Source: Eledone cirrhosa
Lineage: Eukaryota
Assembly (NCBI GenBank): GCA_964016885.1
Contig: OZ024740.1
Span: 159,340,001 to 159,404,000, forward strand
DNA length: 64,000 nucleotides
Direction: 5' to 3'
Part shown: positions 5,599-59,310 of the stretch, piece after piece
Numbering within the stretch: position 1 is the first letter of the stretch
How the letters are laid out: the number at the start of each line of letters is the position of its first letter
The notes under the pieces: generated by a model
Seen by the model: only the letters and a program-made list of their open reading frames with translations
Database searches by the model: none
What the model was told of the DNA's origin: nothing
Position numbers and translations under genes: made by a program

Positions 5599-6099
5599 TT
5601 GCGCATGTGTTACATCCGGGTGTCTGTGTGTGTTTATATTTGTTTATTTATTTGTTTATTTACATGTTGTTTATTTACTGGTTGGTTGTTTGTTCTATGT
5701 GTGTGTGTGTTTTCATTTTCATTTGAAAATGAAAACACACACACACAGACACCCGGATGTAACACATGCGCACAACACACACAAAAACAAGATGGCGTAG
5801 GACAGAACAAAGTAGAGGCACAAAAACAAAGAAAAGAATCCCCAGTCACTGAAGAGATGACAGAATGTGTGCCGAAAGAACTTTGACAATATATGAACAA
5901 TCGTCTGGTTGTGGAACCAACCAACCAACCGGAAATTTATAAATTCCTAAATTTATAAGTTTAATTTATAATAAATTGAAGTGAAAGCATGGTGCGTGTG
6001 TTTCTTATTGGCAACATGACCCTCCCAAAGTATAACAATATCGGTTTCAACACTCGTTTTCAGATAAAGAATCTTGCTAAACAAATTCAGAAACGAAAT
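5599..6099. mobile_element. inverted pLTR remnant of the 55-59 kb PLE family (family N), with degenerate hammerhead at 5844-5888
   Basis: Matches 58500-58934 and the 55308-55373 tail. Local hairpin ttttcattttc-attt-gaaaatgaaaa near 5722. Confidence 0.85.
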
Positions 6100-6129
6100 A
6101 TATATATATATATATATATATATATATAT

Positions 6130-6950
6130 ATGAATTATAAGTATTTGGATGTCGATTCTCGAAACGTAACATCCTCCTGTATTGAACTAAAGAACATCAG
6201 ACTACGATTCTCTAACTGGATTGTCAAACGCTCAATATCGAATCGTCGTGGATTATGTGAGGGGCATATAATCTGAAAAATACACTCCCCAGACTATGAA
6301 AATGTCGAAGTACATGAGGTCCATATCATCCCTTCACTGCGCATTTCCAATATTTTTTATATTTTTAATGCTTGCACTATTTTTAATGCTTATATTATTT
6401 CTCCACACACAGACTATAACAATCATATAAAGAATTTGTCACCAGATCAACCAATCTAACACTCTTGTTTACCTACTTAAGGGCTTCTACTACACGTAAC
6501 TCTCTGCCACACTATATAAACAAGACGCACGTGCTTGACACACATATAACCTTTGCACTATATAACCGCTTATTTTCATGTTGTACTTTAACCTGTATTT
6601 TGGATTGTATCTTTTAATATGAATGTAATCTCTAAGTGTGTACTGCCACTCTAAATGCTGTAATGAATGTTGACCCACAATATTTGCATATGTATCTGTA
6701 TGTCTCTTGGGTGAAAATGAGGTCATATAAGTGTTCATTCATTAATAAATTGCTCCGAAGAATCCAAACCTCGGTTTGGAGGAAACAGTTGTAAGCATAA
6801 AAATGTTTTGAACAGTTCTTTGATTCTTATAATTCATTTAACTGCTCTGTAAATCATCTGATGTTTTTACATTGAGCTACTTAACTTACTGGTAATAAGG
6901 TAGTAATATATTACTGCCTACCACTATTTAGGGTTTGTATAAAAATATAT
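6130..6950 (+). mobile_element. probable 3' fragment of another PLE (degenerate endonuclease C-terminus plus 3' UTR)
   Basis: Bounded by (TA)n and contains the hammerhead at 6751. The peptide ...RFSNWIVKRSISNRRGLCEGHII only weakly resembles a GIY-YIG C-terminus. Confidence 0.5.
6751..6797 (+). ncRNA. type I hammerhead ribozyme with one core mutation
   Basis: tgct CcGAAGA a-tccaaacc-tc-ggtttgga-g GAAA cagttg TA agca. Confidence 0.75.
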
Positions 6951-7748
6951 ATAACTGCAAAAGGTTTTTATATTTACATAACCATAAATAGTATAATTAA
7001 TACTATATATATATATATATATATATATATATATATATATATAAATATATAAATATATATATATATATATATATATATATATATATAAATTTTACTTTTG
7101 AATATATATATATACTCAAAAGTAAGATTTTTGTAGTATATCAACACAGGTAAATATGTAGGAAAAAGAAATTGAAACTGCAATTTAAGAAGGTTTATTT
7201 ACAATAACTTATACAATTTTCATGAATTTTCGAAAGTTAAGAAGTTAGGAGAACTGTGTGGCTATGCCATTATGTAACTCGCGTCTAACTGGTGTTGGGA
7301 GTTTATTTCAGTTTTATGCAAAACATGCGCCTAAGATTGCGGTATGATTAAAATAAAATTTGATAGGTTGAGGAAGATCATGTAATTAAGCATTGAATTT
7401 TGTTATAATTTCACACCAAAAATTGGGAGTGTCATATTTCTTGTTTTATTCGGAAAAGTGGCTCAAATTTCTCTCTGTTTAAAGTATAATTTGATATGCT
7501 GAGAATGATAATGTGATTTGGTTGTACTTAAGCGTCATAGTACGGGCGTGTCGTGGTTTAGGGAATGTGGACACTGCCAATTCATGCTGAACGTATTGTC
7601 TTTGTGGAAATCCGAAAAATTCAAAAGTACATGAATTTTCTTTATGTGTGTGTAGCTATGTTTTTGTTTCCTGCTACGTCCGAATAATAATAGCACAGTA
7701 ACAAAAATAGTAATAATAATAATTATTATTAACATTACCGTCACTATC

Positions 7749-7970
7749 ATAATTGTTTCTTATATAGGCACAAGGCCAGCAATTTTGGGGGCAGGGGAAA
7801 GTCGATTAAATCGACCCCAGTCCGCGACTAGTACTTTATTTTATCGACACCGTAAGGATGAAAGGCAAAGATAACCTCGGCGGGATTTGAACTCAGATCA
7901 TAAAGGACCGTAACTCTATGCGTCAAAGCATGGCGCCCGGCCCTCTACCGATACTGCCAATCCAATGACC
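7749..7970 (-). mobile_element. SINE family A, long variant
   Basis: Full body including the gtcgattaaatcgac hairpin. Confidence 0.9.
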
Positions 7971-8641
7971 CAATCAGCATAAAGAACACGAATTGTACGT
8001 GACTATGTGTGTGCGTTATGGTTCAGTAAGTAGCCGGGTGCACAAATATATAATTTTTATTTTGAATAAATATATATTATTTTATTCATTGTTGTGTCGT
8101 ATGTGTGTGAGTGCAACAATGGCGGTTTATTTCCTTCTCTGTCCGGGTACCAATGATCATGTGATAACAATAATAATTGCGACAACAATAACAATGATAA
8201 TGTTGATAGTAATTCGATTAGCTTGGTGACGGATATTATGTGCGCGCACGCGCCGTGTGGGTGTGGGGGTAGTTTGAGTCTATTCAGATGTGATTTGTAT
8301 TTTTGGATAAATAAATATATATATACATATATATATATATGTGTATATATATATATATATATATATATATATAAACGGAAAAAATGAAACGAAATTTCAG
8401 TTCCCACTCTTAGTACGGCTGTTACTTAAATATAAGTATATACACGTACATACATATATGTATACAGACGTACAGTAGTATATATATATATATATATACA
8501 TACATGCACACATATATATATGTACGTATGGATTCACCTAACATTTATTATAATGCTCGGTGTGTTTTTAAACAAACATCCCGTATTAAGCCGTAGTGTC
8601 TAGCAACCATCGTTGCTCGTTTGTTCAACACTGACAAAGGA

Positions 8642-57640: not shown

Positions 57641-57648
57641 GTGTTGGT

Positions 57649-58498
57649 GGACCATACCAAAATCAACATACTGATTGCGGATTTGGTACGGGTGATGAGA
57701 AATGTGTCCCGCATGTGCAACCCCGAAGAACTAGAGAGACACATACAACACTTCATCCACCGTATGCAGTTCTCTGGCTACAATCAGAGAGATAGAATCA
57801 GAGTGTATAAAGGAGCCAGAACCAAATGGGAAAAAATGGTAAATAATGACTTAAATGGGACCTACCTCTTGTATAGGAGCAAATTTTGGAATAGAATAGA
57901 AAGAACTAGGAACAAGGCCAATAGAATAAACTCATGGTATGATAGTAATAAATACCAGAGTGTAATGTTCATCAATACAACCCCTAGAGGCGAACTAGCC
58001 TACAAATTTAGAAGAGCCCTAAATAAACATAATCTCAATATTAAGATAATAGAAAGACCAGGTACCTCCGTAAAAACACTTATTAGCAAGACATACCCGT
58101 TCCAAAGACCCTCATGTATAGATAAGAAATGTATAACCTGTAAAATAAGCCCCCATATTAACTGTAAAACTAGAAATGTAGTGTATAGCATAAGATGTAC
58201 TGAAGGACAATGTAGAAACAAAAATATAGTGTACATAGGTGAGACAGCTCGTAGTATAGGGGAACGAATAAATGAACACTGGCGAGACCTCCAAGATAAT
58301 AAAGAATCATCTGTGCTCTACCAACATGCTAAGATAGAACACACGGGTAGATTAGAGAACATAGAAATAAAAATAGAATCCACACACAGAAAAGACGCAA
58401 TGTTTAGGCAAATTACAGAGGCAGTAAGCATAAAAGAATTAAAACCAAAATTAAATAGAAAATATGAGTGGAACAGCAACATCACAACTTACAATTAA
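57649..58498 (+). pseudogene. inverted duplicate of the PLE ORF C-terminus (thumb plus GIY-YIG)
   Basis: Nearly identical protein to the left arm, with TGG where the left arm has TGA. Confidence 0.95.
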
Positions 58499-58728
58499 GG
58501 ACAAAATGAAAACACACACAGGACAAAATGAAAACACACACACACATAGAACAAACAACCAACCAACAATAAATAAATAAATAAATAAACAAATAGATAA
58601 ATGAACACAAACACACACAGACACCCGGATGTGGCGCATGCGCAAACTGAGCACACAACACACACACAGAAACAAAATGGCGTAGGATAGAAGAAAGGAA
58701 AGGCACAGAAACAAAGAAAGGAATCCCC

Positions 58729-58773
58729 AGTCACTGAAGAGGTCACAGAGTGTGTGACGAAAGGACTATGACT
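58729..58773 (+). ncRNA. minimal type I hammerhead in the pLTR (mirror at 55534-55578 on the minus strand)
   Basis: agtca CTGAAGA g-gtcac-agagtgt-gtgac GAAA ggac TA tgact. Confidence 0.8.
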
Positions 58774-59310
58774 ATATATAAACAACTATCTGGTTGTGGA
58801 ACCAACCAACCAGCCAGAAATTTATAAGTTTGTAAATTTGTAAATTTATAAATTTATAAATATATAATAAATTGAAGTGAAAGCAACTGGTGCGTGTGTT
58901 TCTTATTGGCAACATGACCCTCCCAAAGTATAACTATATCTATATATATCTATATCTATCTATCTATGTATATATATATATATATATATATATATATATA
59001 TATATATATATAATAATTTATATATATATATGTATATATATATATAGAGAGAGGATAACAAGATATCCATGTTATTCTCCACTTTTTGAATTGTGTATAT
59101 ATATATATATATATATAAGTATGTATGTATGCGTACATACATATATGTATACAGACATACAATAGTATGTATATATATACATACTACTGTACGTCTGTAT
59201 ACATATATGTATGTACGTATACATACATACATACTTACATTTAAGTAACTGCCATACTAAGAGTGAGAAATGAAATTTCGTTTCATTCTATTCCATTTAT
59301 AATATATATA

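Follow-up and report, generated by a model that had tools for sequence, protein, structure and literature searches.

Canonical EN+ Penelope-like retroelements (PLEs) carry an inverted pLTR with an optional 3' tail of 30-40 nt, according to the accessible text of PMC3846280 and PMC8557442, and section 15 of the latter, in its available part, names the formation of the inverted PLE structures as an open task. For PAc, a Poseidon element of the green anole, the purified protein nicks and extends both strands of an AT-rich target, the tail is bounded by two reverse transcription (RT) start sites that lie within the start of the ORF, and a dimer is predicted (PMC11167929). The PAc bulk data in that study showed the same start sites on both strands; within-molecule coupling was unreported and the inverted arm unexplained. 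In LINE-1 twin priming (Ostertag and Kazazian 2001, cited in PMC12016303), both target strands prime on one RNA. The portion of PMC12016303 that covers it gives about 20% of L1 insertions, priming at poly(A) and a variable internal site, and a median overlap of 12 bp.

The window analysed here is a stretch of 64,000 nt from Eledone cirrhosa (GCA_964016885.1, contig OZ024740.1, 159,340,001 to 159,404,000). Its repeats are PLEs inserted in (TA)n, where a target site duplication is unreadable. They have the inverted pLTR and optional 3' tail of the canonical elements, with tails of 31-111 nt. PAc belongs to the clade Penelope/Poseidon, whereas the elements of the window appear to be of the Neptune/Nematis type and the Hydra type. 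The inverted insertion and the end joining are shared with L1 twin priming as PMC12016303 describes it in the same portion, but here most insertions were concerned, with no poly(A), two fixed internal sites and overlaps of up to 1,882 nt. The insertions work like twin priming but do not have its L1 form of poly(A), variable site and short overlap.

Element families and their end sites

The family N unit was 4,151 bp long and contained a single ORF with RT (YVDD) and, at the C terminus, a GIY-YIG endonuclease (EN), in one frame of 919 aa after one frameshift in an N-rich part of that copy. In the translation, the GIY and YIG equivalents flank a pair of Cys, and two His follow downstream (CCHH). 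The pLTR was derived from a partial tandem, the tail covering the ORF start, and the tandem copy L037 reads through into the ORF. The linker before the endonuclease, CIDKKCITC, fits the CX2-5CxxC linker by which Neptune or Nematis is defined in the available part of PMC8557442, and family N is probably of the Neptune/Nematis type, belonging to either of the two clades. A hammerhead core motif with stem II was present in the N pLTR (fold z -0.71, not significant), and an Rfam search of the window returned no ribozyme at gathering score. Families H1, H3 and P had a CxCX5C linker, no CCHH, and CxxC and CxH around conserved E and N, which are the linker and EN features of the Hydra clade in the accessible text of PMC8557442 section 11. 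The second Cys of CxxC was variable in H3 copies, and the P copy had DKT codons near 18860, read by eye. Families Q, R, U, V, W, X and Y showed no coding frame in the arms examined and were assigned to PLEs by architecture only.

The two-armed N insertion at 55308..58939 had a left arm (-) of 2.3 kb with the long end and a right arm (+) of 1.3 kb with the short end, joined at about 57650, with an arm identity of 98.5%. The left arm contained a partial RT frame with YVDD (56373..57662, -; the Pfam RVT_1 match, at E 7e-5, falls below the curated cut-off) and the GIY-YIG endonuclease (55812..56369, -; Pfam GIY-YIG E 7.5e-5, above the cut-off), whose CX4CxxC linker and CCHH residues were read from the translation. 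The N tail of this insertion (55308..55367, -) extends from the short site to the long site and codes for early ORF codons. A putative minimal hammerhead-like motif (CTGAAGAG, stem II, GAAA) lay in the pLTR at 58727..58773 (+).

The N short site was ...AACAATAT|CGG and the N long site was ...GAAATAT|CGT, with AATATCG common to both. The original prediction of two fixed N ends held as to discrete sites; their spacing, predicted as about 65 nt, was exactly 60 nt. Among 133 N alignments ending at -65 to 0, 68 ended at most 5 nt from the short site, 59 at most 7 nt from the long site and only 6 between, and the end positions are thus discrete, as had been proposed. Both sites are internal to the RNA and lie within the first ORF codons, the ORF ATG being 83 nt above the long site. 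Tails measured 81 nt in H1, about 90 nt in H3 and 111 nt in P. A genome search with exact sequence patterns found 12,641 short and 11,658 long N ends. Insertions in the whole assembly number roughly 12,000 for N and 11,000 or more for H1. No homology of the start sites to the cut DNA was found for PAc (PMC11167929), whereas the N sites offer ATAT microhomology.

The end pairs claimed for N in the window were confirmed. The N insertion at 9234..9550 (long/short) had a tail-only long arm of about 21 nt joined to a short arm of 300 nt, and the one at 13500..13670 had a short left end, a long right end and a junction filler of about 15 nt; 55308 and 58939 were long and short, respectively. The relative at 42279..42601 was short/long as expected and proved to be a diverged form, N2, with decayed TA flanks and a clean TA run at neither end. 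The N copy at 5599..6101 had a long right end and was untypable because its left arm has no 3' end. All four H1 copies were mixed, namely 1555..1751 (long/short), 3180..3373 (short/long), 27236..27419 (long/short, with a small deletion within the tail) and 37927..38053 (long arm tail-only). The predicted absence of arm overlap at 9234 and 37927 was also seen. Both H3 insertions (13984..15062 and 53659..53827) were short/long, and no partner end was found for the H3 end at 35829. At 18488..21834 a long arm of about 165 nt and a short arm of 3.2 kb were found much as described, with an overlap of about 55 nt; this locus is a separate, Hydra-type family (P), and its RT and EN frames (19004-20758) lie in the short arm.

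Pairing of ends and sharing of edits between arms

Nine families sampled over 1.89 Mb yielded 159 intact two-armed insertions, of which 156 were mixed, 2 were long/long and 1 was short/short (p 2e-42 against a 50:50 expectation). The tabulation of pair types against independence that had been proposed therefore gave mixed pairs far above chance in the sampled regions. The N count excludes stretches picked by edit or mini motifs (45 stretches), and internal short calls that read through a TA run into the tail were dropped. Three family Y calls of short/short were rejected on this ground, and same-type pairs obtained in unbiased clustering (clusters 15, 25 and 7) proved to be internal TA5 segments of larger mixed insertions. 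In a held-out region of 21 Mb (C1 21.4-42.45 Mb, scored by positions only), 25/27 two-armed pairs were mixed within 4.5 kb, compared with 3/8 tail-to-tail neighbours. The claim that each insertion has one long and one short end thus stands for two-armed copies; apparently one-armed insertions also exist, and these own 11 N and 10 H1 ends. The accounts of canonical EN+ PLEs, in the accessible text of PMC3846280 and PMC8557442, do not give such a quantified one-end tail rule.

Five insertions were A>G-hyperedited, and 201/211 edits were common to both arms (32, 23, 13, 101 and 32 shared per insertion), with 10 on one arm only. Judged from their pattern, the A>G clusters are presumably ADAR edits. 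An unedited partner arm was seen in 0/5 of the heavily sense-edited overlapping insertions (overlaps 200-953 nt). One edited 30-mer had exactly two occurrences in 3.0 Gb, one per arm of a single insertion, and searches with edited motifs mostly yielded -/+ pairs. Common variants were concordant between arms in 250/295 cases for N and 86/145 for H1, against 20% and 10%, respectively, for random arm pairs. At C1:18.413 Mb the long arm extended to -275 and the short arm to -564, neither containing the other, and 23 edits were shared; contigs from other samples did not extend over the edited parts of this insertion. The arms kept private differences. Taken as a mark of two RT passes, the 10 edits confined to one arm did not clearly exceed a background of 26 other differences.

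The shared edits point to one sense template per insertion, not two RNAs. The edit barcode alone fits both two RT passes over one RNA and a single fold-back cDNA. The original suggestion of two RNA molecules is not supported, since the arms share private A>G patterns in 5/5 sense-edited overlapping insertions and share subfamily variants. A concatemer, the other template suggested, is possible for C1:2.088 Mb, where the short end sits 4.1 kb downstream from a junction whose edits the long arm shares, and is unneeded for the remaining insertions. The template here was apparently sense RNA, in contrast to PMC3846280, which in its accessible text leaned towards self-priming with an antisense template without deciding the matter.

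Arm asymmetry, proposed mechanism and competing explanations

Arm lengths were compared without family Y, whose reference contains a hairpin. Modal arm ends, candidate RNA 5' ends, lay at -141 in H1 and at about -330 in N. Of 149 insertions, 57 had a 5'-longer short arm and 26 a 5'-longer long arm, and 66/149 junctions were symmetric within 15 nt. In H1 the bias was 17 short vs 1 long (p 1.4e-4); for N alone it was 17 vs 23 (p 0.43), a side bias that is not significant. Arms overlapped by more than 20 nt in 123/149 and by more than 200 nt in 26. The long arm stopped inside the tail in 17/149; these stops often coincide with microhomologies and therefore do not demonstrate a protein roadblock.

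Discrete ends, near-strict pairing, shared edits and variants, overlaps and more frequent long-arm truncation were observed, and the insertions probably form when one sense RNA is twin-primed at two fixed internal positions, with strand displacement. [quoted passage not shown] The short-site cDNA would run ahead, often reaching the RNA 5' end, while the long-site cDNA would either stop inside the tail or displace the first cDNA from the RNA. PLE reverse transcriptases are not known to have RNase H. Finally, microhomology or end joining of the filler type would connect the two cDNA ends. The pairing would probably be explained by a putative protein dimer that holds both sites. The pairing rule, the TA microhomology found at both N sites and PMC11167929 speak for the predicted priming from both target strands at two fixed sites.

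Single priming at the long site, followed by cDNA fold-back, a second strand that ends at the short site and a subsequent deletion on one side of the palindrome, would account for the shared edits and variants and for the 66 symmetric junctions, and self-priming has been proposed for PLE palindromic junctions (PMC3846280, Discussion, in its accessible part). It predicts, however, a 5'-longer long arm at least as often as a 5'-longer short arm, and the long-arm truncation bias argues against fold-back plus later deletion. Asymmetry did not rise with arm divergence, and young N copies were already asymmetric (11/13, against 20/26 older ones). On the short arm of several tail-only H1 copies, the modal 5' end was preserved exactly. 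Fold-back also requires an exact stop at the short site, whereas in vitro RT initiates at both tail boundaries (PMC11167929), and we regard it as unlikely. A hairpin or circular DNA intermediate formed off the chromosome, which the endonuclease cuts in a staggered manner at the long and the short site prior to integration, would yield strict pairing as well as shared edits; both N sites are AT-rich like the target, and the tail is ascribed to EN-mediated resolution of an intermediate in the available text of PMC8557442. Tail-only arms and the long-arm truncation bias would stay unexplained by such cutting, PMC11167929 places the tail boundaries at RT start sites, and the probability of this route is judged to be low.

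Two RNAs of the same source locus, one per subunit, could be primed at different sites and their arms later homogenised by gene conversion. Long overlaps would then form without strand displacement, and both long/long exceptions were mostly discordant in common variants (concordant:discordant 1:2 and 1:3), so such events may occur rarely. As an account of the pairing it has very little probability, given the 0/5 edited insertions with an unedited partner arm, the private differences that persist on the arms and the absence of a third copy of the edited 30-mer from the assembly. Least credible, and as a main route already contradicted, is that hairpin transcripts of inverted insertions already in place are copied back in full, the layout being inherited: N junctions were almost all unique (1 recurrent pair among 48), both arms of the five edited insertions carried a same-sense edit pattern, and the first origin of the layout would have no explanation. 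Recopying would fit a 51-bp mini insertion with 96 copies sharing one junction and one enriched variant (7/28 vs 10/160). It would also fit the discordant insertion at C6:5.100 Mb, where 21 T>C changes lay on the long arm only and a few A>G changes on the opposite arm, the pattern expected of a hairpin transcript. A T>C motif search had one match, the motif being too narrow for counting antisense-edited copies.

Relation to published work and further insertions

Earlier publications (PMC8557442, in its accessible part, and PMC11167929) already describe the one-end tail, the two RT start sites and the extension of both nicked strands. Near-strict pairing, edits common to both arms and the long-arm truncation bias were not found in print. 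The Frangieh supplement text had no match for tail, inverted or initiation, and its figures S1-S2 may bear on novelty; Evgen'ev and Arkhipova 2005 and Arkhipova 2006 may detail the one-end tail further, the pairing rule itself not being found in print. The available portions of bioRxiv 10.1101/2024.12.14.628481 and PMC8969392 held nothing further on pairing, and that of bioRxiv 10.64898/2026.07.22.740005 had no match for tail or priming.

On balance, twin priming coupled at two sites of one sense RNA, with strand displacement on a scale of up to kilobases, is more likely than not the default integration route of (TA)n-targeting PLEs in at least two clades. If so, the inverted pLTR, the one-sided tail and the MITE-like hairpin copies would be explained in one step, and the genome-frozen A-to-I marks would be single-molecule barcodes of retrotransposition. 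PLE reverse transcriptases are the closest relatives of telomerase RT, so that the mechanistic interest of one RNA being read twice through strand displacement would reach beyond PLEs. From the pairing rule and the shared edits comes a specific model, open to testing in the in vitro system that already exists for PLEs (PMC11167929). Genome annotation also gains: hairpin repeats numbering in the tens of thousands in such genomes are retroelement stubs and not DNA-transposon MITEs.

Further insertions were present in the window. Family X (8374..9205), in which low complexity blocks automatic typing and which was kept outside the pairing totals, had a longer outer end on its left arm than on its right arm. 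Another PLE insertion outside the totals (31541..34474) contained a GIY-YIG frame at 32871-33644, and its left end was about 35 nt longer than its right end. A family W insertion absent from the original prediction was found at 59313..59511 (long/short), and the H3 insertion at 53659..53827 had a mirror copy at 53916-54085.

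Long and short ends and their pairing

All examples that could be typed in the window showed the long/short layout described in the original prediction, with small corrections only. The two fixed ends proposed for family N were confirmed, while their spacing, put at about 65 nt, was measured as 60 nt. These ends were discrete and not continuous, with 127 of 133 alignments ending in the region stopping at either site. Both N sites lie within the first ORF codons, which makes them internal to the RNA. Both have the context AATATCG, so that ATAT microhomology to the target is available.

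Pair types, whose tabulation had been proposed, were counted in a sample of 1.89 Mb (149 stretches) drawn from three sources: an N and H1 motif series from the start of contig C1, the 864 kb surrounding the window, and further motif loci from other contigs. A large proportion (156/159) of the intact two-armed insertions (coverage of 80% or more, typed with family references) were mixed, with one long and one short end, across nine families. Family N contained 48 mixed and 1 long/long, H1 contained 57 mixed, 1 long/long and 1 short/short, and the other mixed insertions belonged to Q (8), H3 (9), R (9), U (8), V (5), W (5) and Y (7). Partly covered pairs were all mixed (11/11), as were those of family P (4/4, read off the alignment list). 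Tail lengths across families were 31-111 nt, the offsets used for R and U (85 and 86) being a few bases under the true tail. Loci of N and H1 were picked by motifs located upstream of the short site. These motifs are present in both arm types and therefore do not favour mixed pairs; many unlike-end pairs were also recovered by reference-free clustering of TA-run-adjacent sequence. In the held-out region C1 21.4-42.45 Mb, listed positions of exact N short and long ends formed 25 mixed pairs, one long/long and one short/short pair at most 4.5 kb apart, and 26, 2 and 2, respectively, at most 9 kb apart; of the tail-to-tail neighbours, 3/8 were mixed. Genome-wide, N short ends numbered 12,641 and N long ends 11,658.

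Two arms are not universal among copies. Unpaired ends at TA runs numbered 46 for N and 41 for H1, of which 11 and 10, respectively, start at most 25 nt from a TA run. A few of these keep a 5-9 nt vestige of the opposite arm. The remaining ends were interrupted or cut off, escaped the caller, or came from relatives. Contigs of other samples contained many different joints of a tail-only long arm with a short arm, which rules out an error of this assembly as the source of the layout; none of the joints displayed from those contigs was exactly that of the window.

Shared changes and the template

Some N copies carried dense A>G changes. At locus L037 (G000:C1:2,083,700-2,090,100) these were common to both arms and missing from the terminal pLTR 4.1 kb away. 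One edited 30-mer had exactly two genome matches, one in each arm, and searches with four edited motifs produced 3, 12, 10 and 17 matches, many of them as -/+ pairs. Ten two-armed insertions were scored. Five were heavily changed in the overlap, with 32, 23, 13, 101 and 32 A>G common to both arms and 10 confined to one arm; two were lightly changed (2 and 1 in common), and two had changes outside the overlap and were uninformative. The discordant one, L147 (G000:C6:5,099,940-5,100,451), had 21 T>C in the long arm and 2-3 A>G in the short arm. Patterns varied from insertion to insertion, and in the largest edited case G was the rarest 5' neighbour of changed sites. We infer that the clusters are ADAR edits of the template RNA. 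As the A>G changes are in sense orientation on both arms, the N template was likely a sense RNA, and the inversion likely arose at integration and not by transcription as a hairpin.

Arms also agreed at common variants (N, 250 agreements vs 45 disagreements; H1, 86 vs 59), with random-pair agreement of 20% and 10%, respectively; H3 (0 vs 3) was uninformative. At L037, an edited pLTR of another subfamily also precedes a full-length N unit in a tandem arrangement, which reflects either a tandem RNA with priming 4.1 kb apart or an older copy into which a later insertion took place. At L105 (G000:C4:162,096,008-162,098,200), a short arm with T>C and a long arm with A>G lie tail to tail, 1.2 kb apart.

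Arm lengths, junctions and the route of insertion

The most likely route, held with reasonable confidence, is two-site priming of one sense RNA from both nicked strands, followed by joining. Both (TA)n strands would be nicked, and each nicked 3' end would prime at one of two fixed sites on a single sense RNA. The short-site cDNA would go first, the long-site cDNA would come after by displacement or halt early, and both cDNA ends would finally be joined. Fold-back of a long-primed cDNA with later deletion predicts instead that the long arm is 5'-longer, and such deletion should strike either side. Among 149 mixed insertions (family Y left out), the short arm was 5'-longer in 57 and the long arm in 26, a bias marked in H1 (17 vs 1, p 1.4e-4) and not significant in N (23 vs 17); in the other 66/149 the arm 5' ends lay within 15 nt of each other. 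Arm asymmetry did not rise as arm divergence grew (N rho -0.29, p 0.07). Arm lengths thus argue for two cDNAs rather than fold-back. Junctions were 1-20 nt microhomologies, blunt joins and short fillers. Arm overlap exceeded 20 nt in 123/149 (maximum 1,882 nt), and copying a single RNA with such long overlaps requires displacement of the first cDNA by the second RT. Long arms halted inside the tail in 17 insertions; in 10 of these the stop came 30-39 nt before reaching the short site, where microhomologies also fall. Arm ends clustered at -152 to -134 in H1 (80/118, adjoining TTAGT or TCAGT) and at -345 to -314 in N (15/98); both clusters are taken as putative RNA 5' ends. A motif about 30 nt above the H1 cluster is presumably TATA-like, and motifs around the -330 cluster in an N pLTR (window 58620-58685) are ETS-like, NRF1-like and YY1-like.

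Recopying of transcribed hairpins appears to be a minor route. L147 would be an example, with deamination of one cDNA in an RNA:DNA hybrid as a possible alternative. A 51-bp mini insertion of family N, with arms of 33 nt (short) and 20 nt (long) and a CAA microhomology, is possibly another; it has 96 exact copies (L165-L194 and 66 more places), with unrelated flanks in the 30 viewed, and one variant is enriched in it (7/28 vs 10/160). Some of these copies may therefore belong to a lineage that propagates itself. For the two long/long exceptions, an origin from two RNAs is possible.

Published work and window content

The long/short end feature is real and the family is known, the families named in the original prediction being Penelope-like elements (PLEs). 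The two-site part is already published: two RT start sites bound the tail, both strands are extended, and start sites are alike between strands in bulk (PMC11167929). PMC8557442 describes a tail frequently at one end only and counts inverted structures as unexplained, PMC3846280 proposes self-priming on an antisense template, and PMC12016303 gives L1 twin-priming rates and 12-bp overlaps. For PLEs, neither a pairing rule nor evidence of a single template nor twin priming was stated in titles, abstract starts or passages of the searchable literature (subscription papers were not searchable), and both the coupling and the evidence for one RNA appear to be new.

The window (G000:C1:159,340,001-159,404,000; assembly size 3.0 Gb) contained abundant (TA)n and inverted repeats. 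Translated frames of H1, H3 and P (the 18488 family) had a CxCX5C linker without CCHH, a pattern that fits Hydra. One N 27-mer had 24,983 exact matches in the genome, and one H1 20-mer had 22,131. In its N-terminal half, the N ORF carries an asparagine-rich insert (L037, codons about 250-330) that resembles those of rotifer Penelope elements (PMC3846280) but lies upstream of the RT.

A non-LTR retrotransposon ORF, represented by its 3' part (51830-53332, minus strand), matched the zf-RVT profile, with a C-terminal restriction-like nuclease-type region recognised by eye. A TA-flanked element (16555-17396) combined a 375-bp hairpin with a 165-bp segment that is duplicated. A 765-bp palindrome (3654-4418), which includes a common dispersed repeat, is inserted in another inverted element (3432-5551). 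A 737-bp palindrome with a TA run at its centre (53503-54239) mirrors an entire H3 insertion and about 140 bp of flank, and is either a fold-back duplication or an assembly artefact; a second hairpin follows directly (54245-54631). PLE insertions of differing families form chains in which a neighbour's TA flank is the target, as in the L075 region, at window 13450-15080 and at many other loci.
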